A stretch of DNA of 64,000 bases. Source: a virus. Under the pieces are notes generated by a model that was given only the letters and a program-made list of their open reading frames with translations, was not told the DNA's origin and did no database searches. Where the stretch lies: the IMG/VR virus record IMGVR_UViG_3300028535_000001; one strand, 5' to 3'. Of this stretch, positions 1 to 20,894 are shown piece by piece (the first letter of the stretch is position 1; every line of letters begins with the position of its first letter). Made by a program: the position numbers and the translations under genes.

Positions 1-1034
1 GCTGTGCTCTAATTAAAGGTCATGTATTAAGAAAAGTTGGTTATCCTTATTACACATATCATTCTGCATTAGATCATAAAAATACAGTATCCGAAGATGT
101 TGATTTTTGTAGAAAGGTACAGTTAAATGGTTTTAAAATTTTTGCTGATACTACAATACGTTGTGAACACACAGGAGCAAGTACATATAAAGTAGGAGAA
201 ATCCAAAACAACAAACCATTGATTGAGGAAGAGGTACGAGCACCTATTCAAATAGGAGGAGTTCCAAAAGCTACAGCTGTACCTGCACCTGTACAAAAAA
301 CATTGCACCCAAAAACTGCCAATCTTTCCAAGCCTTTGGCTAGATATGATGATAGTACATCTAAAAAAATAAAAAGAACTTATCCAGGTATTGATCCTAA
401 AACTGGTAAATATGCATTAGAAGTAAATGAAGGAGAGAAATTTACAGGCGATAGTGTAGAGTATACTTCATTAGCAGAAGCAGTACAAAGTTTAAAAAAT
501 CCTATTGGTGCTAGTGTAGAACTTGGCGTTAGATTAGGATTAGGTAGTAAAACTATTATAGACGCATATAGAAATTTTCATCCTAACATTAGATTAAATC
601 ATTTAGGTATAGACCCATATGGTGATATTGACTATGCAGCTTCTGATAGTGTATTGGCAAGAAAGTTTAACTATGATAACTTAATGAAAAAGACAACATT
701 AATAAACTTTGCTGAAGAATATCCAGAATTTCATCTAGTTAATTTTGAAGATACAGAATTTTTTAATAGATTTAGTGATGGTTATCCTGTTTATGAAGAA
801 AAGAAACATATGATAACTCATTATGAACTTGTTCACTTTGACGGTCCACATGATACTAAAAGTGTTATGAGAGAAGCCGTTTTCTTCAATCAAAAAAAAG
901 CAGATCAAACATTTTGGATATTTGATGATATTTCAGGTTTAAGATGGAGTGTTTTAAATGGCTTTATGGGAAAAGCAGGATTTAAACTTGTTAATAAAGG
1001 ATTGAATAAAGCTGTATACGAATATAATATTTAA
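1..1034 (+). CDS. Glycosyltransferase family 2 (C-terminal part) fused to class I SAM-dependent methyltransferase; 5'-truncated by window edge
   Basis: The frame of ORF 219..1034 is open back to position 3: CALIK...SEDVDFCRKVQLNGFKIFADTTIRCEH (GT2-type). It continues into VELGVRLG...GIDPY...VHFDGPH...IFDD (Methyltransf_24-like). Confidence 0.7.
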   Translation, partial: CALIKGHVLRKVGYPYYTYHSALDHKNTVSEDVDFCRKVQLNGFKIFADTTIRCEHTGASTYKVGEIQNNKPLIEEEVRAPIQIGGVPKATAVPAPVQKTLHPKTANLSKPLARYDDSTSKKIKRTYPGIDPKTGKYALEVNEGEKFTGDSVEYTSLAEAVQSLKNPIGASVELGVRLGLGSKTIIDAYRNFHPNIRLNHLGIDPYGDIDYAASDSVLARKFNYDNLMKKTTLINFAEEYPEFHLVNFEDTEFFNRFSDGYPVYEEKKHMITHYELVHFDGPHDTKSVMREAVFFNQKKADQTFWIFDDISGLRWSVLNGFMGKAGFKLVNKGLNKAVYEYNI

Positions 1035-1372
1035 AAAGCTTTTACTACAGACGGAGTCACAACAGCAATACCCTCTAATAAACGAGTAACCGTACTATCA
1101 GCGTGAGTAGCGACAACGTCAAATACCCAACGGCCTGGTGATAATGCTTTTGTTTGATCGGCAGTTAAACTTACAGTTACCACACCTTCTGTTGGATTAT
1201 CAACAGTACATGAAAATATTGTCCGAGGATACGTTGTTGCATATCCCTTAGCCAACTTACCCACCATTGTGAAACCAGTAAGATCGTAATCTGTACCGTC
1301 AGCATTAGTGACTTCTAGGTCGTAAGTAAAATTAGAGCCTTGATCTATTGTTAAATTTGCTATTCCTGCCAT
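1031..1372 (-). CDS. Small virion structural protein (T4-like marine phage family, ANLTIDQG motif)
   Basis: MAGIANLTIDQGSNF...DLTG...RLLEG.A.VTPSV pattern; late promoter TATAAATA immediately upstream. Confidence 0.6.
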   Translation of the reverse strand: MAGIANLTIDQGSNFTYDLEVTNADGTDYDLTGFTMVGKLAKGYATTYPRTIFSCTVDNPTEGVVTVSLTADQTKALSPGRWVFDVVATHADSTVTRLLEGIAVVTPSVVKAF

Positions 1373-1377
1373 ACCAT

Positions 1378-1385
1378 TATTTATA
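1378..1385 (-). promoter_or_regulatory. T4-type late promoter TATAAATA
   Basis: Exact consensus, 5 nt before the ATG at 1372. Confidence 0.75.
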
Positions 1386-1396
1386 ATGGAAATTTG

Positions 1397-2764
1397 TTAA
1401 GATTGTATGTGTAATTCGTTTTTCTTTTTAGGGTGTTCAAATCCAATTGATCTTCTATCTTCATTAAGTTTATCAGATTTATATCTTTCAATTTTTTCAA
1501 GACAATGTTCTTGGAATTGGTAACCTAGTTCAACTCCTAATTCATAAAGTTTTATAAATCTTTCAAATCTTATATCAAAATTAGAGTTTTTATTCTTCCA
1601 TTTAAAACCAAACTCACTATCAAATAACTCTCTATGTTCAAAATCTAATGGAGTATTTTTAAAAGTCATCATCACGTGGTGAGATATACTTATTAAATGT
1701 GAATACTTTTTATAATCTCTCAAAAGTTGTAGAGTATCTTCAAACATTTTTTCCGTTTCCGTAGGATATCCGACAATAAGTAAAAACTTCATAGTAATAT
1801 TCCGTTTTCCAAGGTTGTCAACAAAGTATTTTATATCTTCGTTTGTAAATTTTTTTCTCATATGATTTCTAACTTCTTCATTACCTGCCTCTAAACCCAT
1901 TTCTAAACCATTGCAACCAGAGTTTTTTAAATTATTAAAGTCTTCTTGTGAAAAAGTTTTGGCGGATCTAACAATGAACTGTGCCTCCCATTTTATTTTT
2001 TTAGGTCTACTTGATAACTCAGCACATAAGTCCCTAAAGTGTTTCATTGATCCATTAATTAATGAATCTGAAAAATGTATTTTTTTTGTGCCTGTTTGTT
2101 CAGAAACATGGTGCATTTCATCAGCGATTTTCTTACCTGTCTTCCATCTAAATTTAGGCCATATACTTGCAACATCACAAAAGGTACAGTTACGAACACA
2201 ACCTCTTGATCCTGATATTACAAATTTCCTATAATTTTGATGTTGTATTACGTCTGAATAATCTGGTGGTGGTAAGTCTTCTATGTTTTCAATTTGTACT
2301 GGTTTTTTTCCATTGATACCAGGATAATCAAAGTTGCCATTTAAAAATTCTCGTAAGGCATACTCTCCTTCTCCTGTTATATAATATTTTGTAGGCCAAT
2401 CTATATCAACTCCTGATCCACCATAAAATGCATTTTCAAATTTTTTACCTAACTTTAGGCCATCTTCTTTTTGCATAAAAGAAAATACTGATATACCTAA
2501 CCATCTAAAATTGTATTTGTTTATTTCTTTTTCAATGTTGTCTAGTGTATCATACATATGACCATCAATAACTTTAATTTTAAATCCTAATGGTTCTAGA
2601 TACCCTTTTAAAAAAGATGGACCAGGTGCCGGTTTAGATTTATCCATTCCTGGTAGTGACGTTATAACAGCGTCATATAATATATTTTCTTTAATAACTT
2701 CTCCTGCTCTAGGCCATCTTTCTTCAGCCGTAGGAAATCTATCAATCACTTGGCAATGCTCCAA
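1397..2764 (-). CDS. Cobalamin-binding (class B-like) radical SAM protein
   Basis: SRGCVRNCTFC CxxxCxxC motif; N-terminal B12-binding-like region (GISVFS...YGG...GEGE); GLEAG and IVGYPTET motifs. Confidence 0.85.
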   Translation of the reverse strand: MEHCQVIDRFPTAEERWPRAGEVIKENILYDAVITSLPGMDKSKPAPGPSFLKGYLEPLGFKIKVIDGHMYDTLDNIEKEINKYNFRWLGISVFSFMQKEDGLKLGKKFENAFYGGSGVDIDWPTKYYITGEGEYALREFLNGNFDYPGINGKKPVQIENIEDLPPPDYSDVIQHQNYRKFVISGSRGCVRNCTFCDVASIWPKFRWKTGKKIADEMHHVSEQTGTKKIHFSDSLINGSMKHFRDLCAELSSRPKKIKWEAQFIVRSAKTFSQEDFNNLKNSGCNGLEMGLEAGNEEVRNHMRKKFTNEDIKYFVDNLGKRNITMKFLLIVGYPTETEKMFEDTLQLLRDYKKYSHLISISHHVMMTFKNTPLDFEHRELFDSEFGFKWKNKNSNFDIRFERFIKLYELGVELGYQFQEHCLEKIERYKSDKLNEDRRSIGFEHPKKKNELHIQS

Positions 2765-3203
2765 CTATATGTGTTCTTAAACAATCTTTAGAACAATTTA
2801 ATGCTGTATGAAATTTTGTTGTATCAACAACATATGCCTCTCCTGTGGCTGGCAAATGTATTCTTTCATTATCAACTAATAAAAAACAATGTTCATGTGT
2901 GTTTACTGGTATGTGTAATCTTTTTGTTAAGTCAGCATGCCAAAGATAACATGCTTTAGGTTTCATTTTCATTATCCTTGTTCGTAATAGATTATGGTCA
3001 TCCATGATAGCGTTGATATAAGGGAGATCAAATAGTGGAACATTATACAAATGTTCAGCATTATCTATTTCATATCCTTTACCAGCGCCTGCTTGAGGAT
3101 CCATATCCTTGGAATCACCTTGTAAATATATTTGTTTACCATACTCTGGTAAACTTTCTACTTCTTTTTTAATTCTTTCTAAATCGTATTGATAAGTTTT
3201 CAT
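2742..3203 (-). CDS. Aspartyl/asparaginyl beta-hydroxylase-like 2OG-Fe(II) oxygenase
   Basis: WHAD..RLHIP...HTALN...RTHIV (HxD...H triad). Confidence 0.75.
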   Translation of the reverse strand: MKTYQYDLERIKKEVESLPEYGKQIYLQGDSKDMDPQAGAGKGYEIDNAEHLYNVPLFDLPYINAIMDDHNLLRTRIMKMKPKACYLWHADLTKRLHIPVNTHEHCFLLVDNERIHLPATGEAYVVDTTKFHTALNCSKDCLRTHIVGALPSD

Positions 3204-3358
3204 GCTTTACTTATAACTAATTTATCTTTAGCTGCTAGTTTTAATTTTTTTAAGGTTCTTATATCCGCCCAACTTTTTGGACCTCTTCTGATTTTTCGTT
3301 TCACTTCGGCTTCATTAACTTGTTTTTTTAACTCTTTATGTTTTTCTTTTACCGTCAT
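3200..3358 (-). CDS. Small basic coiled-coil protein, DUF465/YdcH-like (52 aa, not in ORF track)
   Basis: MTVKEKHKELKKQV...LKKLKLAAKDKL; GGAGG RBS; ATGA overlap with the next gene. Confidence 0.7.
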   Translation of the reverse strand: MTVKEKHKELKKQVNEAEVKRKIRRGPKSWADIRTLKKLKLAAKDKLVISKA

Positions 3359-3381
3359 TTGGCCTCCATTCTCTATACAAG

Positions 3382-3402
3382 TATTTATACGCCTTATAAA
3401 TA
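3382..3402. promoter_or_regulatory. Back-to-back divergent late promoters (TATAAATA on - at 3382-3389, on + at 3395-3402)
   Basis: Two exact consensus boxes at the strand switch of the accessory island. Confidence 0.75.
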
Positions 3403-3444
3403 TGACCAGGTTGCCAAAAATAGAAAAAAATGTTAATATAATAT

Positions 3445-4320
3445 ATGACCAGATTAAATATAATTGTCACAAGTAAACCTGGAGATGGACTATTACACTA
3501 TAGTTATGAACAATGTAGCTATTTAAAAAAACTAGGAATTGACGCAAGAGTTGTGGTAATACCACACCCAAAATATTCAGAAGAATCTTATATAACTGCA
3601 ATGTCAGAAAAGTATATAAATTATGAACCTATGTATTTTGATTATGAAGAAAATGAAAAAGAAGTCAATTTAATTATGGGTAGAAGTATGATAACTCTAG
3701 CATATAGGAGTATTAAAGATTACGATAAAGATACACAATTGACTTTACGTTTATTATTTAAACTACCTCTTATATCTGTTTATTCAGAAAACCACCCAAA
3801 AGATTATCCATTAGCATTAGAATTTTTTAAACCTAAAAAAATAATTGACTTATGCGATCACGAAGTTTATACCAATGGTGTAGGTAGACAATTTGAAAAA
3901 ATTATTAACTATAGTGTATATAAACCTATAGTAAAAGATGTCAAGTTTAAATATCTATTTTTAGGCACAAATGAAAGTTATTATACTGAAATAAAAAAAC
4001 ATATTCATAAGTATCAAAATCATGGTATCCTGGCATACAAAGATAAGTACATTGATTATAATTTAAATCACGTATTTGTACCTGTAAAAAATTTATTAGG
4101 TATGTTTGATACTTACGTTTATACTAAACATACTTTTGATCCGGCACCAAGATTAATGCAAGAGTGTCGTTTCTTTGGAATGAATTTTATATATGCAAGA
4201 GATAAAAATATTAAAGACGGAGGACCTGTTTACTATAAAAGGCCTGCTAACTGTCTTACTGATCCTGTTAATAAACCAAATATAGAAGTAATTATAAAGG
4301 CAATGAATGACCTATTTTAA
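3445..4320 (+). CDS. Putative GT-B fold glycosyltransferase-like protein
   Basis: C-terminal FDTYVY...DPAPRLMQECRFFG resembles the GT-B donor-binding motif; located among sugar enzymes. Confidence 0.4.
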   Translation: MTRLNIIVTSKPGDGLLHYSYEQCSYLKKLGIDARVVVIPHPKYSEESYITAMSEKYINYEPMYFDYEENEKEVNLIMGRSMITLAYRSIKDYDKDTQLTLRLLFKLPLISVYSENHPKDYPLALEFFKPKKIIDLCDHEVYTNGVGRQFEKIINYSVYKPIVKDVKFKYLFLGTNESYYTEIKKHIHKYQNHGILAYKDKYIDYNLNHVFVPVKNLLGMFDTYVYTKHTFDPAPRLMQECRFFGMNFIYARDKNIKDGGPVYYKRPANCLTDPVNKPNIEVIIKAMNDLF

Positions 4321-4972
4321 AACTAGAACAACAATAAATGTAGACTCTTCTCATAGATGTCCTTTAGAATGTCCTAATTGCCAAAGACAAACTGCTTTTA
4401 CATTTAGAGGTAAAGTGGTTCATGGCCGTGATTTAAAAATGGATGAAATAGAAAAATTAGCAAAACATTTTAAGTCTTTTGATTTCTGTGGACAATTATC
4501 TGATCCAATACATCACCCTAAATTTCCTACAATATTAAATAGATTACATGAACTTGAAATACCGGAAGTTTTAGTACACAATGCCTCTACAGCAAAACCT
4601 ATGGCATGGTACATTAAATCTTGGAAAGCAAATCCAAATGCTTTGTGGACTTTTGCGTGTGACGGTTTACCTAAAGATAGTCACAAGTATAGGAAAAATC
4701 AAAACGGGGAAAAAATGTTTGAAATAATGAAAGAGTCAATTAAACATTTAAATACAATACCAATATGGCAGTTTATAATATTTAATTATAATGAAAATGA
4801 TATAGAAGAAGCTAAGATTATGGCTAATAGTAATGGAATAGATTTTCTGTTAACACAATCTTCCAGATGGAAAGATAGAGACGGAAAACCAGACCCATTG
4901 TTACCAACAGGAAAATATAAACCAGTATTAAAAAATAAATTACCAGGCAGGAGATTATATGAAGAATATTAA
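4307..4972 (+). CDS. Short radical SAM protein (paralogue 1)
   Basis: RCPLECPNCQR CxxxCxxC; FCGQLSDP; DG motif. Confidence 0.85.
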   Translation: MTYFKTRTTINVDSSHRCPLECPNCQRQTAFTFRGKVVHGRDLKMDEIEKLAKHFKSFDFCGQLSDPIHHPKFPTILNRLHELEIPEVLVHNASTAKPMAWYIKSWKANPNALWTFACDGLPKDSHKYRKNQNGEKMFEIMKESIKHLNTIPIWQFIIFNYNENDIEEAKIMANSNGIDFLLTQSSRWKDRDGKPDPLLPTGKYKPVLKNKLPGRRLYEEY

Positions 4973-5342
4973 ATTGAGACCTCGCTGTCTTCCTAATCCA
5001 GATGATCCAAATTATATAGAAATGCCTGTAGCAATAAACAATAGAGGTTATTTGTTACCTTGTTGTTGGTGTGATGAAAGAGTTGTGACTAATAGTGAAA
5101 AGTTTAAAAAAATATATGACGTAAGTAAACTTGAAAACTTTGATACAGTTAAACAATTGATGGATCAACCAGAATGGAAAGAATTTGAAAATGATTTAAT
5201 CAGAGCTAGAGACGTAGGAGATAATCTAGAAAAAATAAATGGTGTCTGTATTCATCACTGTAAAACAAGAGAAGAAGCAGATAAGATAAAAGTAGAAACA
5301 ACATTTAGAGACGGAAAAGAATTAAAGAAAGAAACGAAATAA
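4959..5342 (+). CDS. Stand-alone SPASM/twitch-like Fe-S protein (partner 1)
   Basis: C...AINNRGYLLPCCWCD...CIHHC; own GGAG RBS. Confidence 0.65.
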   Translation: MKNIKLRPRCLPNPDDPNYIEMPVAINNRGYLLPCCWCDERVVTNSEKFKKIYDVSKLENFDTVKQLMDQPEWKEFENDLIRARDVGDNLEKINGVCIHHCKTREEADKIKVETTFRDGKELKKETK

Positions 5343-5527
5343 TGGTATTCAGTATTAGCAGTCATCAAATATATCGTTTTCCTTGTATAGGTGTTTGTAG
5401 TATTGATGTAAATAGTGGTTACTGTTTAGGTTGTAGTCGTACTGAAAAAGAAGTGTACAAATGGGAAGATACAAACACAACCGATGAATGGAAAAAGAAA
5501 AACGAAGAAGAATTAAAAAATAGATAA
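5342..5527 (+). CDS. DUF1289-family Cys-rich small protein
   Basis: PCIGVCSID...GYCLGCSRT..E...W signature. Confidence 0.8.
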   Translation: MVFSISSHQIYRFPCIGVCSIDVNSGYCLGCSRTEKEVYKWEDTNTTDEWKKKNEEELKNR

Positions 5528-5531
5528 AATA

Positions 5532-6170
5532 ATGGAGAGATATTTTAAAAAAAGACGTAGGTTAAATTTAGATGTGACCCATAGATGTCCTCTTGAATGT
5601 CCTAACTGTCAAAGACAAACATCGTTTACCAATGATGGTTTGGTACCTCATGGACGTGATCTAACGTTAGATGAATTAGATATGATAGCAAAACATTTTA
5701 TAGATATTGGTTTTTGTGGACAGTTATCGGATCCAGTACATCACCCTAAATTTAATGAAATAATGAAAATGCTTAAAGATGTGCCAGAGGTTTTTGTTCA
5801 TAATGCAGCTACAGCTAAACCTATATCTTGGTATATTAAATCTTGGCAGGCAAATCCAAAAGCAGTTTGGATATTTGCTTGTGATGGTCTTCCTAAAGAC
5901 AGCCATAAATATAGGAAGAATCAAGATGGTATTAAAATGTTTGAGATAATGAAAGAGGCCAAAAAACACTTATTGAGTACACCAGTGTGGCAATATATTA
6001 GATTTAAATATAATGAAAACGATATTGAAACAGCAAAGAAAATGGCCGAAGATGAAGGATTAAGTTTTATACAAATAGAATCTTCAAGGTGGTTGGGTGA
6101 TGATGATCCTTTTAAACCTACAAACTCATTAAAATCAAAGGCGGCTGTTTATAAAGGTACAACTAAATGA
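5532..6170 (+). CDS. Short radical SAM protein (paralogue 2)
   Basis: RCPLECPNCQRQ; near-identical motifs to 4307..4972. Confidence 0.85.
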   Translation: MERYFKKRRRLNLDVTHRCPLECPNCQRQTSFTNDGLVPHGRDLTLDELDMIAKHFIDIGFCGQLSDPVHHPKFNEIMKMLKDVPEVFVHNAATAKPISWYIKSWQANPKAVWIFACDGLPKDSHKYRKNQDGIKMFEIMKEAKKHLLSTPVWQYIRFKYNENDIETAKKMAEDEGLSFIQIESSRWLGDDDPFKPTNSLKSKAAVYKGTTK

Positions 6171-6541
6171 AATTAAAACCTAAATGTTTACCTGATCCAG
6201 ATAACAAAGACTTTCAACCTATGCCTTTGGCAATAGATAATAGAGGTCATTTAATACCTTGTTGTTGGTGCGATCACCCTAAAACAACAAAGGCTGAGTT
6301 ATATAAACCTCTTTATAAAGTTAGTAAGCTTAAAGATTATAATAGTATAGATGAAATACTTGATACAAAAGAATGGAAACAATTTGAAGATGATCTAGTC
6401 CAAGCTAGAGATATAGGAGACAACATAAATAGAATTAACCAAACTTGTCTCTTTCATTGTAAGGCAAGAAAGTCAGATGACAATATAAAAATTGAAACTT
6501 ATTATGAAAAAGGTAAAGAAGTAGCGAAGGATATTAAATAA
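6167..6541 (+). CDS. Stand-alone SPASM/twitch-like Fe-S protein (partner 2)
   Basis: C...AIDNRGHLIPCCWCD...CLFHC; paralogue of 4959..5342. Confidence 0.65.
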   Translation: MKLKPKCLPDPDNKDFQPMPLAIDNRGHLIPCCWCDHPKTTKAELYKPLYKVSKLKDYNSIDEILDTKEWKQFEDDLVQARDIGDNINRINQTCLFHCKARKSDDNIKIETYYEKGKEVAKDIK

Positions 6542-7593
6542 TGGACGCATGGCATAAAGAATATGAATGGAACAAAGATGAATATATTAAACTCTTTGAT
6601 GAAGCAATGCAAGAAAAACAGGAACAAAATATAGAGTTCCTAGAAAAAACAATAACAAACACAATTGGAAGAAAATATGCTGTTGCTTGTCAAAACGGTA
6701 CAGACGCCTTAATGTTTTCTTTAATAACATTAGGAATAAAACCAGGTGATGAAGTAATAACAACAAACTTTTCTTGGATATCAACAGCGTCTTGTATATC
6801 TATGGTAGGTGCTAAACCTGTGTTTTGTGATATTGATTTAAAAAACTATCATATGACATTAGATAGTATAAAAAGAATGTATCAACCTGAAGTAAAAGCA
6901 ATTGTTTATCCTCATTTATTTGGCAACATGTCTAATATAACAGATATATTAGAATTTTGTAAAGAGAAAAATATATTTTTTATTGAAGACGCAGCTCAAG
7001 CCATAGGATCAAGTATCAATGGTGTAAAAGCAGGTACACTAGGAGATTTCAGTACTATAAGTTTCAATGCAAACAAAACTATTGGTGGTATCGCTGGTGG
7101 AGGAGTTGTACTAACAGATAACAAAGAACATGCCGATACAATAATAAAATTAAGAAAACATGGTAACCACGAAATGTTAGGATACAATTCTAAAATGTTA
7201 TTTTTTAATGCCAAGTTTATTGATTATAGATTAAAAAAATTAAATGTATATGTAGAAAGAAAACAAATCGTAGCAAAACTATATGATAATCATTTACAAG
7301 ATTACGTACAGGTACAAAAAACTACAAATGGAGTTAATCATACTTATCACAAATATATTATAAGGTTTGAAGATAAAGAAACAAGAAATAGAGTAAAGAA
7401 AAGAATAAATGCAAATGTTCATTATGAAAAACCTCTTTCAGAAAGACCTATGTACAAGAGTATAGATCATAGAAGTGATAATTGTATTAATTGTAAAACA
7501 ACCGGTGATACAATTTTAACCTTACCAATTGACCCATACTTAACAAAAGAAGAAATAGATAAAACGTGTAATACAATATTAGCCTCATTATGA
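6541..7593 (+). CDS. DegT/DnrJ/EryC1/StrS PLP-dependent sugar aminotransferase
   Basis: NGTDAL, GDEVIT, IEDAAQAIG, SFNANKTIGG motifs. Confidence 0.92.
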   Translation: MDAWHKEYEWNKDEYIKLFDEAMQEKQEQNIEFLEKTITNTIGRKYAVACQNGTDALMFSLITLGIKPGDEVITTNFSWISTASCISMVGAKPVFCDIDLKNYHMTLDSIKRMYQPEVKAIVYPHLFGNMSNITDILEFCKEKNIFFIEDAAQAIGSSINGVKAGTLGDFSTISFNANKTIGGIAGGGVVLTDNKEHADTIIKLRKHGNHEMLGYNSKMLFFNAKFIDYRLKKLNVYVERKQIVAKLYDNHLQDYVQVQKTTNGVNHTYHKYIIRFEDKETRNRVKKRINANVHYEKPLSERPMYKSIDHRSDNCINCKTTGDTILTLPIDPYLTKEEIDKTCNTILASL

Positions 7594-8885: not shown

Positions 8886-8901
8886 TATTGAGGAATATAT
8901 A

Positions 8902-9792: not shown

Positions 9793-9804
9793 TAAATATT
9801 AATA

Positions 9805-10644: not shown

Positions 10645-10654
10645 GGAGTAAATT

Positions 10655-11053: not shown

Positions 11054-11076
11054 TAAATAAGTATGAGGAGAACATT

Positions 11077-12597: not shown

Positions 12598-13400
12598 TTT
12601 ATAAAAATAAATTTGGTGAAATTGATATATTAAATTCAAAATATAATTTTAATAATAAAACTATAGCCATATCTATGTCTGGCGGATGTGATAGCACTAT
12701 GTTATGTTATTTGCTTGCAAAAACTATACAAAAGGAAAAATTAAATATTATTATACAACCATATAATGGTTACGATATTGATATACCACACGATTCTGAA
12801 AATGTGCCAAACATTATAAAATATATGCAAAATAAATTTCCAGGTGTAATAAGATGGCCAATAGGGGTGGTTTATAAAACTTTAAGTAATGAAAAAACTG
12901 TTCTAGGTACAGGTACAGGAGATAGTATAGTATTTGAAGATGAGATAATTAGACAAGATTTGCCATTTAAAGGAAATAAAATTCTTTTTGAATCAGATAA
13001 AGATAAAAATAATTGGATCCGCCCATTAAGAGATTTAATTGAAAAAAAAGTAGTTGATAATATAGTAATTGTAGCACTTTCACAAGGTCCTCCTTTAAAA
13101 GTACAACTAGATATGATAAAAAAATACAATATGGTAGGTCCAAAATTAATACAAAGAATAGAAGGATATTTAGATAAAGAAGATTTAAATGAAATCCAAC
13201 AATTGAAGCAGAGCTCTAATCTTGTAAATAATGCACCATTTAAATTTATTGATAAACGATTTATAATACAATGTTATAAAGATTTTAAAATGATGGATGT
13301 TTTAAATGAAATGACCGAATCGTGTACAAAACCTGGTGGAAAATGTGGAACCTGTTGGTGGTGTAGAGAAAGAGAATGGGCAATGGAAGAAGTATGTTAG
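12594..13400 (+). CDS. QueC-like PP-loop ATPase (paralogue 2)
   Basis: MSGGCDS; TESC...CGTCWWCREREWA. Confidence 0.75.
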   Translation: MIYKNKFGEIDILNSKYNFNNKTIAISMSGGCDSTMLCYLLAKTIQKEKLNIIIQPYNGYDIDIPHDSENVPNIIKYMQNKFPGVIRWPIGVVYKTLSNEKTVLGTGTGDSIVFEDEIIRQDLPFKGNKILFESDKDKNNWIRPLRDLIEKKVVDNIVIVALSQGPPLKVQLDMIKKYNMVGPKLIQRIEGYLDKEDLNEIQQLKQSSNLVNNAPFKFIDKRFIIQCYKDFKMMDVLNEMTESCTKPGGKCGTCWWCREREWAMEEVC

Positions 13401-14056
13401 ATTTAAATTTATTAAAAAATATAATGAGTGAGATTAGAGAGAATGATGATCTATTAGATTCGTTAAGTCCTAATCAATTCGCTACTAAACTAAAACTTGT
13501 TGAACATGTAGACAAATTAGATTTTTTAAATAAAGATTCAAAAATAGTTATATTTGGTAGTTGGTATGGCAGTATATTAATACCTGCTTTTTATCATAAA
13601 GTAAAACAAATAGTATGTGTTGATACAGACGCACAAGTAATTAGTAGATCAAAGTATAGAATATTTCCAGAATGGAATATTGATTGGATAACAGGTGATG
13701 TATTTGAAAAGTATAGAGATCAATACGATGGTGTTGATTTGTTTATTAATACATCTTGCGAACATATGAAACCTATGAAAGAATGGGGACCGGCACCAAT
13801 AATGAAAAATCCTTGGTGGGGTAGAACTTCACCTACACACTTTGCTTTTACATCAAACAACATGTTTGATATTGAAGGCCATATTAATTGTGTAGATACA
13901 ATAGAAAATTTTAAGAAACAATTGCCTAGTAATGCAACTGTATTATCAGAGGAAAAGGTAACAGATTATAGAGGTACAAGATTTATTATAGTAGGAAAAA
14001 TGGAAGGAAAACCTGATCCGATTATGTCATGGGAAGAAGCTAAGAAAATAAAATAA
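13394..14056 (+). CDS. Class I SAM-dependent methyltransferase-like protein
   Basis: VIFGSWYG, VCVDTD, INTSCEHM. Confidence 0.65.
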   Translation: MLDLNLLKNIMSEIRENDDLLDSLSPNQFATKLKLVEHVDKLDFLNKDSKIVIFGSWYGSILIPAFYHKVKQIVCVDTDAQVISRSKYRIFPEWNIDWITGDVFEKYRDQYDGVDLFINTSCEHMKPMKEWGPAPIMKNPWWGRTSPTHFAFTSNNMFDIEGHINCVDTIENFKKQLPSNATVLSEEKVTDYRGTRFIIVGKMEGKPDPIMSWEEAKKIK

Positions 14057-14934
14057 TGAAATTATTTGATAATGAAACTAAAAAAAGAGTTATATTCTCC
14101 TTGTATATTAATATACCTAAAGAGGAGTTAGACTTATTTGATAAACATATAAAGAAACCAGAAACAGAGTTTACAAATATTAATACTAAAAATGAATTTG
14201 AAACTCATTACCAAAGACTAATAGATTGTAAAAAAGAATATGCTGATAAAATAGGCGTAGACTTTTTTATGCATGAAGAATATAAAGAATATTACGATCA
14301 CTTTCAAAAAAACTATCCAGAAATTACAAGTTATAATATAGTTAACTTTTTTAAAATACATTTACTATATGAGTATAGTAAAAAATATGATGAAGTATTA
14401 TACCTAGACTTTGATGTTGTTCCTAATACAGACGAAAACTTTTTTGACCATTGGGATTTATCAAAAGGTGTTTGTGTTTTAAATAATAATGAAAGAGTAT
14501 CTCCTATTCAAAAGATTACAGAAAGAACACAAACAATAAGAAGTCCAAACGCAAAATTTTATAATGCTCAAGCTATGTTAATAGAAAAAGGTTTAAGTCC
14601 TGAAAATGATGTTATTAATACAGGTATAATAGGTATTGATAAAGAACATTTAGATCAATTAGAATATTTTACAAATTTTAAAGAAACTCTTAATGAAATG
14701 ACAAGTCTTATAGGTGTATATGATATATTTCCTAAAAAGATTGCTGATTTCTTTGGTTATGATAATGAAACAATATTTGCTGTGAAACTAAAAGAAAAGA
14801 AAGTACCAGTACAATGGTTAGATAAAGATTGGCACTATTTCTTTGATACAAATCTTTTTATTCCTAAAACTGCCAAACTTATACATGCTATTAATAAAAG
14901 GTTTGATATAATTTGGAGAAACATTGATGATTAA
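14056..14934 (+). CDS. GT-A glycosyltransferase-like protein
   Basis: VLYLDFDV (DxD), INTGII, DNETIF, LIHAINK. Confidence 0.7.
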   Translation: MKLFDNETKKRVIFSLYINIPKEELDLFDKHIKKPETEFTNINTKNEFETHYQRLIDCKKEYADKIGVDFFMHEEYKEYYDHFQKNYPEITSYNIVNFFKIHLLYEYSKKYDEVLYLDFDVVPNTDENFFDHWDLSKGVCVLNNNERVSPIQKITERTQTIRSPNAKFYNAQAMLIEKGLSPENDVINTGIIGIDKEHLDQLEYFTNFKETLNEMTSLIGVYDIFPKKIADFFGYDNETIFAVKLKEKKVPVQWLDKDWHYFFDTNLFIPKTAKLIHAINKRFDIIWRNIDD

Positions 14935-15706
14935 AATATGTACTGTATACTTCAAAGGCATGTATACACCAGATTATGTTGCTAACTTATATGATGGACT
15001 GAAAAGAAACAGTACAATACCTTTTCAATTTATTTGTTTAAGTGATGACCCTAACGTAAAGGCCGATGTAGTATTACCATATAATCATCATAGTACTATT
15101 GTAAAGCACTGGCACAAATTAAAATTTTTTAGTCCTTTATTTGGTGGTCAACAACCAGGCGATGAGATTGTTATAATGGATATAGATCAAGTTATTGTAG
15201 GTAATGTAGATGATCTTATAGGACATCCAGTTGGCGATGATGAGTTAGTATCATATGGTGTATTTTGGAATGAAAGATTACATACTAACAGATTAAAAGA
15301 TAATAACATATTACCTTTGAATGGTGGTTTTTATAAATTTAAATCTGGCCAATTCAAGCATATATGGGATGATTTCGCACTTAATCCTGAATATTGGCAA
15401 TTGCATTATTACAATGTAGGTAAAGTACACTTTAAATATTATGGCGAACAAAACTATGTTGATTGGAAAATATTTGAAAAGAAAAGTAAACTTACTAATA
15501 CACCACAAGAATGGTTAGGTAAGTATACAGAAAACGGAAAAGATATGATAAATCTGAACAAGATGTATGCAAAAAAATTTGATACAGATTATATGTTGTT
15601 AGATGAACCAAATGAAAAATTAAAGATTGTACACTATACAGGTCCGAATCGTGTTATTCACGAACTAAAAGACAGCCCTTTGTATAGTAAGTGGATAAAT
15701 AGGTAA
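14924..15706 (+). CDS. GT-A glycosyltransferase-like protein
   Basis: HWHKLKFF, MDIDQV, NGGF, GEQNY, IVHYTG. Confidence 0.72.
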   Translation: MMIKICTVYFKGMYTPDYVANLYDGLKRNSTIPFQFICLSDDPNVKADVVLPYNHHSTIVKHWHKLKFFSPLFGGQQPGDEIVIMDIDQVIVGNVDDLIGHPVGDDELVSYGVFWNERLHTNRLKDNNILPLNGGFYKFKSGQFKHIWDDFALNPEYWQLHYYNVGKVHFKYYGEQNYVDWKIFEKKSKLTNTPQEWLGKYTENGKDMINLNKMYAKKFDTDYMLLDEPNEKLKIVHYTGPNRVIHELKDSPLYSKWINR

Positions 15707-16993
15707 ATGGACGAGAAACAAAAAAAAGAATTTGAACAAAAGTTAAAGGATAAGAAACTATGGTTTTGTCCTTTACCTTTCACACATGTATTCTCTAGTT
15801 TAAGTGGTAGATTTGCACCTTGCTATGACGCACTAGCAAGAACTGGCCATAATATGGAAGATACTACAATAAGAGAATGGTATACTTCTGACTATCAAAA
15901 CACTTTAAGAAAAGAAATGTTAAAAGAGGATTATAATGGTAAATTCTTTAAACATCATTGTACAGGTTGTTGGAAACAAGAATCAAAATATGGTCGTTCA
16001 GATAGACAAAAATATGTTGAACAAATATTAGCAGGTACATTTGATAGTAAAGTACCAGAGTTATTAAGAGCTGTTCAAAAATTTCAAGATGACGGTAAGT
16101 TAGATTTAGATGAAAGAATATTAGACATTAAAATGAAGATGTTTGGTAATGCTTGTAATCTAGATTGTTATATGTGTACACCAAGAAGTGCTAACACTAG
16201 AACTATATCTTTAAAAAAATTAAAGAAAGTATATGATCCTGATTTAGACCCTAAAGACGGTGATAGAATGAATACTTTAAAACATGATGATATAGAATAT
16301 CTAGATGATATTGCCTCTGTAGCAAAATATACTAGATCAATCAAACTAATTGGTGGCGAACCTTTAGTTATGGTAAATCATTATAAACTATTAGACAAAT
16401 TAGTAAAAACAGGTTACTCAAAAGGTATAGACTTAATCTATAAAACAAACTTATCAGTATTTGATATGGACGGTTACAACTTTAGAGATTACTTTGACCA
16501 CTTCAAAGAATTTGTAATGAAAATATCTATAGATAGTTATGGTAAATATAATGACTATATAAGAAAGAAATCAGATTGGCCTTCACTTTTAGATAATATG
16601 AAAACAATGAGAGCAAGAAGAAATGCAAGAGTTAATGTTCACTCTGTAATATCTTTTTTAAGTGTATTAGAAAATTATAAACTAATTGCATTATTAAAAG
16701 ATATGGGTATAGCACATACGTTCTATATTATAGAATATCCAAAAATCTTACAAGTTAAAAATTTACCATATGATATAAAACAAAAATTAATACCTTTTTA
16801 TAAAGACTATCCTAACATTATAAGATCATTAGAAAAGGAACAAGATGAAGCAGAATTTATTAAGACTATTGAGTATTGTCAAGATTTAGATGAAAATGGC
16901 TTCAGTAAGGAAAAAGGACATGATTTATTTGCACTACATCCAGAACTAGAAGAACATTATATAAAGGCGAAACAACGTGAGACAAGACATTAA
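15707..16993 (+). CDS. Radical SAM protein with N-terminal twitch/SPASM domain
   Basis: WFCPLPF...PC...CTGCW, then GNACNLDCYMC and IGGEP. Confidence 0.88.
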   Translation: MDEKQKKEFEQKLKDKKLWFCPLPFTHVFSSLSGRFAPCYDALARTGHNMEDTTIREWYTSDYQNTLRKEMLKEDYNGKFFKHHCTGCWKQESKYGRSDRQKYVEQILAGTFDSKVPELLRAVQKFQDDGKLDLDERILDIKMKMFGNACNLDCYMCTPRSANTRTISLKKLKKVYDPDLDPKDGDRMNTLKHDDIEYLDDIASVAKYTRSIKLIGGEPLVMVNHYKLLDKLVKTGYSKGIDLIYKTNLSVFDMDGYNFRDYFDHFKEFVMKISIDSYGKYNDYIRKKSDWPSLLDNMKTMRARRNARVNVHSVISFLSVLENYKLIALLKDMGIAHTFYIIEYPKILQVKNLPYDIKQKLIPFYKDYPNIIRSLEKEQDEAEFIKTIEYCQDLDENGFSKEKGHDLFALHPELEEHYIKAKQRETRH

Positions 16994-17014
16994 ATAATAA
17001 TTGAAGGAGATATT

Positions 17015-17770
17015 ATGAAGCTAACATACGGCGAACAGACAATAGACTTATTTGGAGAAGACATTTTTCCAGATGGACCCCCAGAAAAGGTTGTAATCTC
17101 ATTATCAGGAGGTTGTGACTCATCATCACTTACATATTTAATTGGAACTAATTTTCCAAATATTCAAATGTATCCTTTTCATTCAAAAGATGAAGACTGC
17201 ACTATAGATACTGAACGTGCTATAGAAGTACATAAATTTTTACAAGACAAATTTCCTACAGTTAATGATTTAGAAGTCTTTAATGTAAGAACAAGTGATC
17301 CTAGTTGGCAAAAAAAGGCCAAAGAAGCAATGGCTAATCCAAAAAATAGTCCTACAGTAAATGGTAAAAAAGTTTCTATGTGGGGATCATTAAACGGTTG
17401 TTCAAAAGCTCTACAAAACAGAAACGTAAGATCAATTATGTCAACAAGATATTCAGCACCTGTTGTTATGGCCATGACTTCTAATCCTCCAGTAGATGTA
17501 CAAAAAGAAAGAGGATTTTATGATGTAGCAGAAAGAAAAAGGGATCCAGGCGACAGTAATTTAAAAATGATGGATATAATGCCAGCTGGTGGTAAAACAT
17601 ATCAACCATATCTAAAAGTTAATAAAAAGTTTGTAGCAGGTATCTTTAAAGAAAATAATTTAATGGAAACTTTATTTCCAAAAACTAAATCATGTGCTTG
17701 GTCAAAAACACTTGAAATATGTGGTAAATGTTTTTGGTGTAATGAAAAAGCTTGGGCATTTGAGGATTAG
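17015..17770 (+). CDS. QueC-like PP-loop ATPase (paralogue 3)
   Basis: LSGGCDS; TKSC...CGKCFWCNEKAWA. Confidence 0.75.
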   Translation: MKLTYGEQTIDLFGEDIFPDGPPEKVVISLSGGCDSSSLTYLIGTNFPNIQMYPFHSKDEDCTIDTERAIEVHKFLQDKFPTVNDLEVFNVRTSDPSWQKKAKEAMANPKNSPTVNGKKVSMWGSLNGCSKALQNRNVRSIMSTRYSAPVVMAMTSNPPVDVQKERGFYDVAERKRDPGDSNLKMMDIMPAGGKTYQPYLKVNKKFVAGIFKENNLMETLFPKTKSCAWSKTLEICGKCFWCNEKAWAFED

Positions 17771-17779
17771 ACGTACATT

Positions 17780-18247
17780 ATGGTTGCTACAATACGATAC
17801 ATAAATGTCAATCCTGATGGTGGCGTACCAAAGCGTCATGTCACTACAGCTAATATAGAAAAATTAGGTCTTAAAGAAGATAAACAAAATTCTCATGGAG
17901 GACTTAATCGTGCTGTTTTATTATATGATAATCAAAAAATTATCAAATTACAGGCAGACGGACACCCTATTGCTCCTGGAACAGCCGGAGAAAATATAAC
18001 TATAGATTTTTGGAGAGAAGGATTATCATATGATAATTTTAAAAAAGGAGATATAGTTAAAGTAGGAAAAACAATACTTGAATTAACTTTTACAGCACCA
18101 CCATGTAAAGGAATTGGTAAGTCATTTTTAAATGGCAACTGCAAATTAGTAGATGAAAAAGTTAATCCAACATATGGCAGATGGTGTGCCAAAGTTTTAA
18201 AAGAAGGCCAAATAAGTATAGGAGATGTAATAGAGATTGATACATAA
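17780..18247 (+). CDS. MOSC domain protein (YiiM-like)
   Basis: HGGLNRAV, PGTAGENI, PPC, G.I.IGD. Confidence 0.88.
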   Translation: MVATIRYINVNPDGGVPKRHVTTANIEKLGLKEDKQNSHGGLNRAVLLYDNQKIIKLQADGHPIAPGTAGENITIDFWREGLSYDNFKKGDIVKVGKTILELTFTAPPCKGIGKSFLNGNCKLVDEKVNPTYGRWCAKVLKEGQISIGDVIEIDT

Positions 18248-18867
18248 TGTACACTATAAAAAAACTTAAAACCTGTACGCTATTGAATTTAATTGATTTT
18301 GAAAGCCATAATCTATTATCAGGTGATAGGGCTTTAAATGATTTGCGTTTTAGTAAATTAAAACAATTGTTGTTTGAAACTCCGAAATTTGATGACTTAT
18401 GTATAGTAACTGAAAATTTAGATGAGTATGGTTATAATACTAGAATGAATGAACTATTTACTGAAGTTAATAACAGATATTATTGGCTAGAGTTACCAAA
18501 CTTCAACGAGGGATATGATAGATTTAACAAAGAAAATCCATTTAACTCCATTAAATTTATTAAAAAAGAATTTAAAATTTTAGGAGCTGAAATTAAAAAT
18601 GTAATTGTGGCAGGTCAAAACTTACCAGGTTGTGTTTTTAAATCATTAGATCACTCTGCTTTACGTTGGGCTGAACAAGGACATCATGTACAGATAGTAT
18701 TATCTATGTGTGGCGATTATGAAGTGTCTGGTGTTGGACCAGAAAAATATATGAACTCATTTGCTAATTTATATAAACAAATTAAAAAATCTGGACAATG
18801 GGCTAATATTGATTTAGTATCTGAAATTAAAGATATAAAATTTTTTAAAAATGGTGAAGTAATATGA
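18247..18867 (+). CDS. Isochorismatase/cysteine-hydrolase-like protein
   Basis: LLNLIDFE near N-terminus; VIVAGQNLPGCV...AEQGHHVQIV resembles the catalytic Cys region. Confidence 0.45.
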   Translation: MYTIKKLKTCTLLNLIDFESHNLLSGDRALNDLRFSKLKQLLFETPKFDDLCIVTENLDEYGYNTRMNELFTEVNNRYYWLELPNFNEGYDRFNKENPFNSIKFIKKEFKILGAEIKNVIVAGQNLPGCVFKSLDHSALRWAEQGHHVQIVLSMCGDYEVSGVGPEKYMNSFANLYKQIKKSGQWANIDLVSEIKDIKFFKNGEVI

Positions 18868-19103
18868 GAAGAATAATTTATGATTAGAGATAGTAATAAT
18901 GCAGCTAATGATGAGTTTGGTATAAGTGAAGAAGAATTTAACAAGCGTCATAAGAAAGCACTCAAAGACGCAGAACCAACAGGCATTAAGCGAAGAAAAA
19001 AGAAAAGAATACCTAAAGAAAAACCTAATCCTTTTAGAGGGCTAGGTAACGGTGGCAGTAGCAGAGGACCTTGGCCTAAATGATTTAATATGAGAAGAAT
19101 AAT
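18860..19103 (+). repeat. 18-bp direct repeat TAATATGAGAAGAATAAT (18860-18877, 19086-19103) flanking a small ORF
   Basis: Two identical copies 226 bp apart. Confidence 0.85.
18880..19083 (+). CDS. Small basic hypothetical protein
   Basis: 67-aa ORF between the repeats. Confidence 0.5.
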   Translation: MIRDSNNAANDEFGISEEEFNKRHKKALKDAEPTGIKRRKKKRIPKEKPNPFRGLGNGGSSRGPWPK

Positions 19104-19674
19104 AGCTTGTAGATTCGGTAATAAGTTTACACAATGGCATGTTGATAATTTAAAATATATGATAGATTTCCATTCTGGAATATCATATGATTCTTTTGAA
19201 GTTATTGAAAATGATATTTACGGTAATTGGTATAATAAATTCCAAATGTACGATAAGTTCCGGGATGGGGAGAACTTATACTTTGATTTAGACGTTATTA
19301 TATGGAAAAAGTTACCAGATTTATTCAGAAAAGACTTTACTTTATTAAATGATTTATGGTGGAGAGAAGAAGCTCATACTCCATTAAACTCAACTATTGT
19401 CTCTTGGACAGGAGATGTTTCTCACATATGGAAAAAATTTAAAGAAGCTGACACGTGTTACCTGGAGATGTATAATAAAGGTAGTGATGAGTTTTATTAT
19501 AAAGAAATAGAATACAAAAACTATGATAAAGTTTGTCCTTCTATTAAAAACTATATGTATGAAATTCCACCAAAAGAATTTAGTATCTGTACTCTAGGTC
19601 AAATGAACCACCTTTTAGAACCTGGTTGGAAAGGTTGGTGGTCAGATTTTATTCTACCTCACTATAAAGATTAA
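19090..19674 (+). CDS. GT-A glycosyltransferase-like protein
   Basis: WYNKF, YFDLDV, LNSTIVSW, GSDEF; related to 14924..15706. Confidence 0.68.
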   Translation: MRRIIACRFGNKFTQWHVDNLKYMIDFHSGISYDSFEVIENDIYGNWYNKFQMYDKFRDGENLYFDLDVIIWKKLPDLFRKDFTLLNDLWWREEAHTPLNSTIVSWTGDVSHIWKKFKEADTCYLEMYNKGSDEFYYKEIEYKNYDKVCPSIKNYMYEIPPKEFSICTLGQMNHLLEPGWKGWWSDFILPHYKD

Positions 19675-20170
19675 GAGCACTCTTTAATAATTCAATTCTA
19701 GTTTTACATTTTCTTAATGCTTTTTTACCTTCAAGATTTTTAGAATCTTTTATCTTATCTATTTCAAACAATCCAATCTTTAAAGCAAACATTTCATCTT
19801 CGGTTGCTTCTTCAGGATTAAAAATAAAATCAAGAACTCTATTAGGAGAAGTATCATCTGTTTGTACAAGACCCTCTCTTTTAGCAATAGCTAAAGCTAC
19901 CTGTTCAAATTCTTTTTTTTGTTCTTCATTGTGACGATATGTACTCTCATGTATTTTTTCTATATTGGTAACTTTCATTAATGATATAAAGTATGGATGT
20001 TTTTCATCAAACTCAACGTGAGTAGATGTAAGACTTTCTTTATTTTCATTAGTTAATACTTCAATCCAATCTCTATTACTACTAGTAAATCTAGCGTCAA
20101 CGAAATATTTTAACATTTCATCACCAAATCCTACTTCTTTATGTTCTCTTTTCATTATTTCAATTGACAT
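19649..20170 (-). CDS. Hypothetical protein
   Basis: 173-aa ORF overlapping the epimerase stop. Confidence 0.65.
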   Translation of the reverse strand: MSIEIMKREHKEVGFGDEMLKYFVDARFTSSNRDWIEVLTNENKESLTSTHVEFDEKHPYFISLMKVTNIEKIHESTYRHNEEQKKEFEQVALAIAKREGLVQTDDTSPNRVLDFIFNPEEATEDEMFALKIGLFEIDKIKDSKNLEGKKALRKCKTRIELLKSALNLYSEVE

Positions 20171-20894
20171 TTTTATTTTCCTTTATATAATTGTATAGGT
20201 CAGTTTTAACCGACCAGTTTAGTTTATTCAAAATTTTAGTATCTGCTGTATTATCTTCTCTTTCAAATTCATTACCTACCCTTTTTTCTTTGAAATCAAT
20301 TCCAAAATACGTTATCATCTCCAGCAAATTATAAGATTTTCCTATACCTATATCTGTTACACCTGTAAATTCACTTTTCATTAAAGTGTCAATAGCAGAT
20401 ATTATATCATCTACATGTATAAAATCTCTTGTATGATTAGTATGTACAAATGGTACATCGTTTCTTAATATTCTTGGTATCAACATATGCTCTCTAGCGC
20501 CTGGTCCGTATACAGTTGTAAATCTCATACCGATACTGTTTTCTGGTGCCATTTGTTCCAAAGAATATTTACTCATAGCATAAGGGTTACGCCAAGGCTC
20601 TATGGCCGTTGAAGAACTTGCATATAATATTTTTGTATTTGGAAAATAATCAAATAGTCTTTGACCTGCAATTACATTTTCTTTCCAGTATTCTGTAGGT
20701 CTATCTAAACTATCTCTAACTCCTGAAAGGCCAGCCAAGTGTATGACTAAACCTACATCGTATTTAAGGTCACAATTTAATAAATCGTTACCTGATAATT
20801 TGTCTATTGGGATTACTTTGTGATCGTTGTTTTTTAAATGCTTATGAAGGTGTTTTCCTATAAATCCTTCACTGCCTGTTAATAATATATTCAT
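20160..20894 (-). CDS. NAD-dependent epimerase/dehydratase
   Basis: TGSEGFIG, HLAG, YASSS, YAMSK, RDFIHVDD. Confidence 0.92.
   Translation of the reverse strand: MNILLTGSEGFIGKHLHKHLKNNDHKVIPIDKLSGNDLLNCDLKYDVGLVIHLAGLSGVRDSLDRPTEYWKENVIAGQRLFDYFPNTKILYASSSTAIEPWRNPYAMSKYSLEQMAPENSIGMRFTTVYGPGAREHMLIPRILRNDVPFVHTNHTRDFIHVDDIISAIDTLMKSEFTGVTDIGIGKSYNLLEMITYFGIDFKEKRVGNEFEREDNTADTKILNKLNWSVKTDLYNYIKENKNVN

Follow-up and report, generated by a model that had tools for sequence, protein, structure and literature searches.

The first 20,894 nt of a 64,000-nt stretch of viral DNA (IMG/VR record IMGVR_UViG_3300028535_000001; the whole stretch, ~30% G+C, is called the window below) hold an island of about 30 tightly packed genes, mostly for soluble enzymes, whose chemistry is probably glycan-related. 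Its core enzymes are one GT-B and three GT-A-like glycosyltransferases (GTs), a DegT aminotransferase with a twitch-type radical S-adenosylmethionine (SAM) enzyme, an O-carbamoyltransferase, a methyltransferase, SGNH proteins resembling esterases or acyltransferases and a short-chain dehydrogenase/reductase (SDR) epimerase. This set fits sugar tailoring, as the first-pass annotation of this DNA had proposed. Our leading reading, held tentatively and at a little under an even chance, is a cytoplasmic pathway that builds and tailors a glycan for the host-recognition proteins of the virion. The phage is a Mosig-like pelagimyophage, a virus of SAR11, and the myophages of SAR11 rank with the most common marine viruses. 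A product that decorated fibres or the surface of the host would have a direct bearing on the range of hosts and on how phages compete within what is the largest population of bacteria on Earth; the predicted radical SAM and ATP-dependent sugar chemistry would, if true, be new and without cellular counterpart. The question is testable because the core operon is present in a cultured phage, Mosig EXVC030M, grown on HTCC1062.

Pelagibacter phage Mosig EXVC030M (Kyanoviridae) is the closest isolate: its carbamoyltransferase is 74% identical, and its homologous enzyme block has tail-fibre genes on one side and VrlC/gp8 on the other. The IMG/VR record referred to here as G001 (46% complete) is 97% identical to positions 1-3400 of the window and provides the preceding 18.6 kb; G011 and G016 are 100%-complete relatives. 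The gene order upstream in G001 is gp15, the gp14 neck gene, fibre genes, a 117-bp gap, a GT4-GT2 fusion (686 aa) and a GT-like/methyltransferase fusion. The gap contains the palindrome TATTTATAAATA, across which collagen-like fibre genes diverge from the GT4-GT2 fusion. Three of these fibre genes (locus L096 of G001, 8950-16041, minus strand; ~2.5-9.7 kb ahead of the window start) encode proline-free collagen-like proteins with repeats of the form G-[FY]-T-G-S-K-G-D-x, up to 55 consecutive triplets and a match to PF01391 of ~87 bits.

Between the neck gene gp14 and VrlC, pelagimyophages carry a hypervariable "host recognition cluster" (HRC), a mix of fibres, glycosyltransferases and "radical SAM cassettes" for which no core was defined and in which the GTs were read as modifiers of the host O-chain (PMC7029224; Zaragoza-Solas et al. 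2020). We place the island in this cluster because of the homologous block in Mosig and its gp14-to-VrlC position in G001 and the window, with a T4 neck protein and gp15 upstream in G001 and VrlC at 21825-27899. The mixed and variable content of the cluster is found here too, as a fibre-assembly gene, the G001 fibres, GT domains, and cassettes in 80 related loci. The island abuts virion genes, as had been noted, with fibre and neck genes on one side and VrlC/gp8 on the other. Its limits needed redrawing: it starts ~2.4 kb before the window, and the gene at 1031-1372 within it codes for tail-fibre assembly rather than for an enzyme. The Mosig genome announcement makes no mention of these genes.

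The gene inventory was obtained from Pfam, NCBIfam and PHROGs searches. The plus-strand operon of the window (24 genes, gaps of at most 23 nt, many overlaps) includes the following.

3445-4320, plus strand: u1, a minimal GT-B fold glycosyltransferase-like protein by predicted structure; first gene of the core operon
4307-4972 and 4959-5342, plus strand: split pair 1, a 221-aa radical SAM core and a 127-aa Cys-rich partner
5342-5527, plus strand: DUF1289 small Fe-S protein (PF06945, 7e-14); accessory
5532-6170 and 6167-6541, plus strand: split pair 2, a 212-aa radical SAM core and a 124-aa Cys-rich partner
6541-7593, plus strand: DegT/DnrJ/EryC1 sugar aminotransferase (PF01041, 1.6e-78); core
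7590-7898, plus strand: u4, a conserved 102-aa protein, always between DegT and rS3
7858-8679, plus strand: SGNH/GDSL hydrolase-like protein (weak Pfam match); core, 1-3 copies in relatives
8902-9792, plus strand: QueC-like PP-loop ATPase, paralogue 1; accessory
9805-10644, plus strand: rS3, a twitch-like radical SAM enzyme (CX3CX2C, GGE); core, ~70% conserved
10655-11053, plus strand: DUF59/SufT-like Fe-S assembly protein (PF01883, 2e-12); accessory
11077-12597, plus strand: NodU/CmcH/TobZ-type O-carbamoyltransferase (Carbam_trans_C 2e-70, Carbam_trans_N 1.5e-19); core
12594-13400, plus strand: QueC-like PP-loop ATPase, paralogue 2
13376-14056, plus strand: class I SAM methyltransferase-like protein (weak Pfam match; Mosig copy annotated as methyltransferase); core
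14056-14934, plus strand: GT8-like protein with DxD; core
14924-15706, plus strand: GTb, a GT-A-like protein with DxD; core
15707-16993, plus strand: NF033640 twitch radical SAM enzyme (293 bits, cut-off 170); accessory cassette
17015-17770, plus strand: QueC-like PP-loop ATPase, paralogue 3; accessory cassette
17780-18247, plus strand: MOSC protein (5e-14); accessory cassette
18247-18867, plus strand: isochorismatase-like protein, a lead only (Atlas structure alone, TM ~0.6); accessory cassette
18880-19083, plus strand: 67-aa basic open reading frame (ORF) between the copies of a 23-nt direct repeat
19090-19674, plus strand: GTc, a short GT-like protein with DxD; core, 63-94% conserved

Most of the enzyme assignments in the first-pass annotation were borne out. 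All five radical SAM genes (1397-2764 on the minus strand; 4307-4972, 5532-6170, 9805-10644 and 15707-16993) have the CX3CX2C motif. The three PP-loop proteins (8902, 12594 and 17015) are paralogues, 31-37% identical, with SGGxDS and a C-terminal SC...C..C.WC motif like the QueC zinc site. In the carbamoyltransferase both Pfam domains score above cut-off, the HHxxH and G..E.G.RALG.RS motifs are invariant, and the NodU/CmcH/TobZ architecture of a Kae1-like N domain with the His motif and a YrdC-like C domain is present; its solved relatives GdmN, NovN (5e-55) and TobZ (3e-49) match in the range 1e-49 to 1e-55. The best solved relative of the DegT protein is the Gln-scyllo-inositol transaminase 7b0d (3e-57), followed by QdtB and WbpE (1e-42). 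The epimerase, likewise confirmed (7e-26), keeps GxxGxxG and YxxxK, and its best solved relative is the UDP-glucuronate 4-epimerase MoeE5 (7.5e-17), followed by TunA and BcUGAepi. The MOSC, SufT-like and Asp/Asn beta-hydroxylase (AspH)-like assignments also hold by hidden Markov model (HMM) search. The SGNH protein and the methyltransferase at 13376 are weak by HMM, and their family alignments keep, respectively, GDS, G and DxxH blocks and a Rossmann SAM motif. The gene once called cysteine-hydrolase-like is the isochorismatase-like lead at 18247-18867.

Where about five glycosyltransferase-like genes had been counted, we find four in the window and more upstream. The u1 protein has no HMM match, and its AlphaFold2 model (pLDDT 64) gave 50 top structural matches (Foldseek, VIA), all GT-B (Z 8.3-10.3), T4 DNA alpha-glucosyltransferase among them. 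PDB profile searches with u1, GTb and GTc returned no sequence matches. GTb and GTc were considered as paralogues and rejected (hhalign probability only 11%, though their DxD motifs align). Scanned in 19-residue windows, none of the island's proteins shows a hydrophobic stretch like that of a membrane helix.

The island is a co-ordinated system with a stable core. Scanning IMG/VR with the carbamoyltransferase gave 297 relatives, and for the 80 best of them (72-90% identity) the loci were compared one gene at a time. The recurrent plus-strand order is u1, one to three pairs of radical SAM core and Cys-rich partner, SGNH (one to three copies), DegT, u4, rS3, carbamoyltransferase, methyltransferase, GT8, GTb and GTc; on the other strand it is u8, epimerase, a 1.5-kb gene, u9 and VrlC. 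The 1.5-kb gene lies between epimerase and u9 in most relatives and is absent from the window, and VrlC adjoins the island in every locus compared. Because gene order is kept across these ~80 loci, the random turnover that had been named as a possible refutation is ruled out for the core.

Around this core the content varies. Split radical SAM pairs move and duplicate inside the island, and the QueC-like, NF033640, isochorismatase-like, SufT, DUF1289 and MOSC genes are variable insertions; a PP-loop gene lies between carbamoyltransferase and methyltransferase in 14 of 41 loci. SufT is present in nine loci, all of the close subclade, and DUF1289 and MOSC have no counterpart in the 80 related loci, so that the suggestion of an island supported by its own Fe-S assembly genes is not sustained. 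A 23-nt direct repeat (18855-18877 and 19081-19103, 21 of 23 positions identical) duplicates the start of the GTc gene and flanks the 67-aa ORF, an arrangement that suggests insertion of one gene at a translational-coupling junction.

Bacterial carbamoyltransferases reach no more than 39% identity with that of the island, and 72 of the 80 bacterial loci share no other island gene; the phage DegT is 31-35% identical to SAR11 homologues in 100 sampled Pelagibacteraceae genomes. As the carbamoyltransferase has no close cellular relative and DegT none in the sampled SAR11 genomes, nothing indicates that surface genes were borrowed from the host, and a host origin of the island genes is unsupported. 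Two contigs filed under cellular metagenome-assembled genomes (MAGs) carry the core operon in order, one (L106, PAFP01000047.1) assigned to Candidatus Pelagibacter sp. with a carbamoyltransferase 71% identical and one (L107, NYWC01000079.1) to Gammaproteobacteria with one 63% identical; both probably derive from phages and ended up in cellular bins. In cyanomyophages (Synechococcus phage ACG-2014d, L083, 8800-10299) the carbamoyltransferase, 33% identical, stands alone: its gene lies between those of the major head protein (gp23) and gp3, inside the structural module, with no other island genes.

The unit formed by rS3 and DegT is phage-specific. The rS3 family is narrow: of 1.84 billion (1.84e9) sequences, 154 representatives match at E<=1e-3. 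Within marine viruses it is very abundant, with more than 1000 clusters at 90% identity in public metagenomes. Auxiliary cysteines 200, 219, 255 and 258, C-terminal to the radical SAM core as in SPASM/twitch enzymes, are invariant in 20 sequences and form a twitch-like pattern; the enzyme at 15707-16993 passes the NF033640 twitch model. Among solved structures the rS3 profile finds viperin-like enzymes, YydG and BtrN as relatives, with alignments confined to the N-terminal core, and SkfB was also matched. In other phage-like contigs, rS3 homologues at 24-39% identity again adjoin DegT. From this pairing we infer, by analogy, a BtrN/BtrS-like oxidation-transamination step.

The phage-like metagenome contigs L102-L105 (some >200 kb) have analogous islands in which an rS3-like radical SAM gene and DegT stand together with several more radical SAM genes, two Asn-synthase-type genes, an ATP-grasp gene and GTs, PIG-L also being found beside such homologues, which suggests a wider class of phage radical SAM/aminotransferase/amide-ligase islands. 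In a Bacteriovorax-type MAG (G028; L190, 7500-12984) a cellular NF033640 twitch radical SAM gene stands between a radical SAM/SPASM gene, itself preceded by an M16 peptidase, and the gene for a 774-aa GT4-family protein, so that peptide-maturation and glycosyl-transfer signals are mixed there.

In the proposed pathway, host nucleotide sugars would be epimerised by an enzyme nearest to UDP-glucuronate 4-epimerases; a radical SAM enzyme would oxidise a hydroxyl and DegT transaminate the product, following BtrN/BtrS-like logic; and hydroxyls would be O-carbamoylated and methylated. In phages with QueC-like cassettes, sugar carboxylates may be adenylated and amidated, an idea that comes from HTVC008M, where the genes for a carbamoyltransferase, a PP-loop "NAD synthetase" and a UDP-glucose dehydrogenase stand together. 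Four or more transferases would then assemble an oligosaccharide on virion host-recognition proteins (fibres, VrlC or baseplate), a target suggested because the island is embedded among host-recognition genes and shares divergent promoters with them. In the close subclade the targets would include the proline-free collagen-like Gly-X-Thr fibres beside the GT fusion genes. Soluble virus-encoded GTs adjacent to and co-regulated with structural genes, one mark of a virion glycosylation system, are found here. The fibre-assembly gene lies inside the island, and the epimerase and u8 end the VrlC unit.

In the divergent promoter region at 3382-3439, TATAAATA occurs at 3382-3389 on the minus strand and at 3395-3402 on the plus strand, followed by a sigma70-like TTGCCA-17-TAATAT at 3411-3439, weaker in the window than in relatives. 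The pair of late motifs reported at 3382-3402 is thus real, and relatives keep late-type motifs on both strands. Over the window as a whole TATAAATA is not enriched (14 copies found, 19 expected); some 10 of these are nevertheless found no more than 110 nt ahead of a gene start on their own strand, although intergenic DNA makes up only 4.9% of the window. Of 33 distinct relatives, 24 have the leftward [AC]TAAATA (background 3.5%) and 23 the relaxed rightward form NATAAATA (background 2.4%); the exact TATAAATA upstream of u1, found in only 5 of 34 relatives, was discarded as the conserved form. A sigma70-type promoter matching at least 10 of 12 positions stands in 23 of the 33, at a fixed 34 nt ahead of the first operon gene (background 3.4%), and one matching at least 11 of 12 in 19 (background 0.45%). 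A description of the island as simply late-expressed is therefore not supported. Judged from these motifs, the main operon is probably transcribed both early and late, and the leftward genes and VrlC unit look late. Because expression is probably early plus late, timing cannot be used to choose between virion and host or nucleotide targets.

The remaining genes of the island and its right flank are these.

3-1034, plus strand: C-terminal part of a 474-aa GT-like and Methyltransf_24 fusion whose start lies ahead of the window (Pfam MT24, E 2e-4)
1031-1372, minus strand: tail-fibre assembly protein-like gene (phrog_3304 "L-shaped tail fiber protein assembly" 1e-17; phrog_1084 6e-23)
1397-2764, minus strand: class-B-like (B12-type) radical SAM enzyme (Radical_SAM 1e-20)
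2742-3203, minus strand: AspH-like cupin oxygenase (PF05118 2e-6, above cut-off; HxD at residue 89)
3203-3358, minus strand: 52-aa Lys-rich ORF with a GGAGG ribosome-binding site, first gene behind the leftward late motif
19649-20170, minus strand: u8, a helical protein at the end of the leftward VrlC transcription unit
20160-20894, minus strand: short SDR epimerase, 244 aa, at the end of the same unit
20911-21447, minus strand: u9, a flank gene
21825-27899, minus strand: VrlC-like virion protein, 63% identical to Mosig VrlC

The full-length G001 copy of the fusion matches phrog_1574 (5e-24) and PHROGs GT families (6e-5). The tail-fibre assembly gene has its own TATAAATA at 1378-1385. One radical SAM enzyme had been called B12-dependent; the top NCBIfam matches of 1397-2764 are indeed B12-binding radical SAM families (PhpK, lipid B12-rSAM, BzaD, BchE), all under cut-off, its CX3CX2C lies at residue 189 behind an N-terminal domain of ~180 aa, and a cobalamin domain is undetected by HMM in this protein, which leaves the dependence suggested. 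The LKKLKL..KDKL end of the 52-aa ORF is, we presume, reminiscent of DUF465/YdcH proteins. The radical SAM core of split pair 1 adds an FCGQLSDP motif to CX3CX2C in its family alignment, and the Cys-rich partners share an invariant C...NRGxLxPCC...C...C; by motif they resemble a detached SPASM/twitch module, an assignment for which a PDB profile search came back empty. The u4 model (pLDDT 74) has a beta3-alpha3 layout; tried as a PqqD-like RRE, it gave no match with Foldseek or VIA (best Z 4.6). In the 378-nt stretch between u9 and VrlC (21448-21824) there is a possible 83-aa ORF (21590-21841, minus strand), and ATAAATA occurs on the minus strand near 21649.

Several points weigh against a virion glycan. 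The proposed target is read off gene position. Collagen-like genes are confined to the close subclade (G001-G004, G025), and PF01391 was not found in Mosig or the complete G011 and G016, all of which have the core operon; collagen-like fibres therefore fail as a universal acceptor. No nucleotidyltransferase or 4,6-dehydratase was found, nor a UDP-glucose dehydrogenase in Mosig-type genomes. Five radical SAM enzymes are many for sugar tailoring, the Bacteriovorax NF033640 gene has a peptide-maturation context (radical SAM/SPASM gene, M16 peptidase), and the conserved sigma70-type promoter implies early expression, which suits remodelling of the host at least equally. In that alternative, which we rate as somewhat unlikely, the enzymes alter SAR11 nucleotide-sugar pools or lipid-linked lipopolysaccharide (LPS) or capsule units, with the consequence that the infected cell or its debris no longer adsorbs competing or progeny phages. 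This was argued in PMC7029224, and the GT8 and the GtrB-like GT2 domain are of LPS-type families. Against it, the Pfam matches and hydrophobicity scan of the island revealed no flippase, polymerase, ligase, polyprenyl-phosphate transferase or other Gtr/O-antigen membrane component (GtrA, GtrC, Wzx/Wzy) and no membrane helix; missing membrane segments do not in themselves exclude it, because peripheral O-unit transferases also have none. The distance of DegT from SAR11 homologues and of the carbamoyltransferase from cellular ones also speaks against host remodelling, as do the late motifs and the position of the genes, both of which link them to virion genes. A modification of fibres or other proteins or peptides other than glycosylation, with the sugar enzymes secondary, would draw on radical SAM/SPASM-type crosslinks, epimerisation or methylation, or Asp/Asn hydroxylation. 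The split cores with SPASM-like partners, the matches of rS3 to the peptide enzymes YydG and SkfB, the u4 layout, the AspH-like gene and B12-type radical SAM gene in the fibre-side operon, and the Bacteriovorax context all point that way. We nevertheless consider it improbable: no precursor-like peptide or ORF and no RRE match was found, u4 has no structural match, wherever rS3 was seen it is coupled with a sugar aminotransferase, and this reading would explain neither the four to seven GT domains nor the carbamoyltransferase nor the epimerase.

The enzyme set also mirrors the sugar tailoring of antibiotics, as would suit a diffusible small molecule, aminoglycoside- or moenomycin/tunicamycin-like, produced during infection: the carbamoyltransferase is nearest GdmN/NovN/TobZ, the epimerase MoeE5 and TunA, and DegT an inositol transaminase and BtrR-type enzymes, the twitch radical SAM enzyme is like BtrN, and PMC12801897 names a cyanophage DegT and radical SAM set "antibiotic synthesis genes". 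These likenesses are generic to sugar tailoring, however, and with neither exporter nor resistance gene seen, nor any enzyme to form a scaffold (cyclitol synthase, prenyl or lipid carrier step), we give the idea little credence. Post-replicative DNA hypermodification, whether to carbamoylated or glycosylated bases or to 7-deazaguanine derivatives via the QueC-like enzymes, had been named as the alternative; it is the weaker reading, and we regard it as highly unlikely. Phage carbamoyltransferases can make 5-carbamoyloxymethylcytosine (PMC8670742), QueC-like paralogues are present, a DNA glucosyltransferase is among the structural matches of u1, and an early promoter would suit replication timing. 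Yet in Mosig, G011, G016, G010 and G001 we found no ThyA-family hydroxymethylase (PF00303; control positive in 10 of 14 genomes), DpdA/TGT (PF01702; control positive in 14 of 14) or C5-cytosine methylase (PF00145, also with a positive control), the genome of the phage itself being available only in part; a TET/JBP search (PF12851) had no positive control. The 7-deazaguanine test is limited in that the complete relatives lack QueC-like genes and G001, which carries them, is incomplete; FolE, QueD and QueE are not among the island's Pfam matches, no search having been aimed at them in the rest of the genome. The transferases are too many for this reading. DNA-modifying carbamoyltransferases pair with ThyA homologues, and those beside GTs lie on unmodified contigs (PMC8670742). 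The 5-hydroxymethylcytosine carbamoyltransferase of that study is, like the island's, of the phage two-domain NodU/TobZ family; it is linked to a thymidylate-synthase homologue, whereas the island enzyme has GTs as neighbours and no such homologue was found in the searched relatives, which is the context of the unmodified contigs.

Returning to glycosylation of the virion, a bolder form of it, which we think unlikely, is a virus-specific factory with multiple radical SAM enzymes that places an unprecedented amino, O-carbamoyl, methyl, uronamide sugar on the fibres of the most abundant ocean myophages. It would comprise the phage-only twitch radical SAM enzyme partnered with DegT, radical SAM cores whose SPASM-like subunits are detached, and QueC-like ATPases repurposed to amidate sugar acids; none of these types is known from the glycan pathways of cells.

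Among known systems, BtrN/BtrS of butirosin biosynthesis is alike in having a small twitch radical SAM enzyme with four similarly spaced auxiliary cysteines next to a DegT enzyme, and the solved relatives of the island DegT include inosose aminotransferases; it differs in that BtrN aligns over the N-terminal radical SAM core only (3e-6), tied with viperin-like enzymes and YydG, and in that the island has no cyclitol synthase. Chlorovirus PBCV-1 (A064R) and the Mimivirus fibril glycans are cases of virus-encoded virion glycosylation. For mycobacteriophages, PMC12801897 cites Freeman 2023 on the same capacity. These systems share with the island soluble viral GTs and methyltransferases beside structural genes, DegT-type amino-sugar synthesis, and fibres or collagen-like proteins as candidate acceptors; they are not known to include radical SAM enzymes, a carbamoyltransferase or QueC-like ATPases, and for the island virion glycosylation is a prediction. 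Unit F of moenomycin is made with the MoeE5 epimerase, MoeM5 carbamoyltransferase, MoeF5 amidotransferase and MoeK5 B12-radical SAM methyltransferase. The island parallels it at the family level only, in a uronate 4-epimerase-like SDR (best match MoeE5), a NodU-type carbamoyltransferase, a predicted ATP-dependent carboxylate amidation and a class-B-like radical SAM enzyme; its amidation candidates are QueC-like and not AsnB-like, and it has no lipid-phosphoglycerate scaffold genes. The nearest system is the HRC itself (PMC7029224), of which the island is the enzyme part: genomic place, the mix of fibre, GT and radical SAM genes, and the homologous operon in Mosig are the same, and the existence of the island was thus already published in outline. 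What is new is the ordered, conserved core resolved within it, with its phage-specific radical SAM-DegT unit, QueC-like paralogues, split radical SAM pairs and dual promoters.

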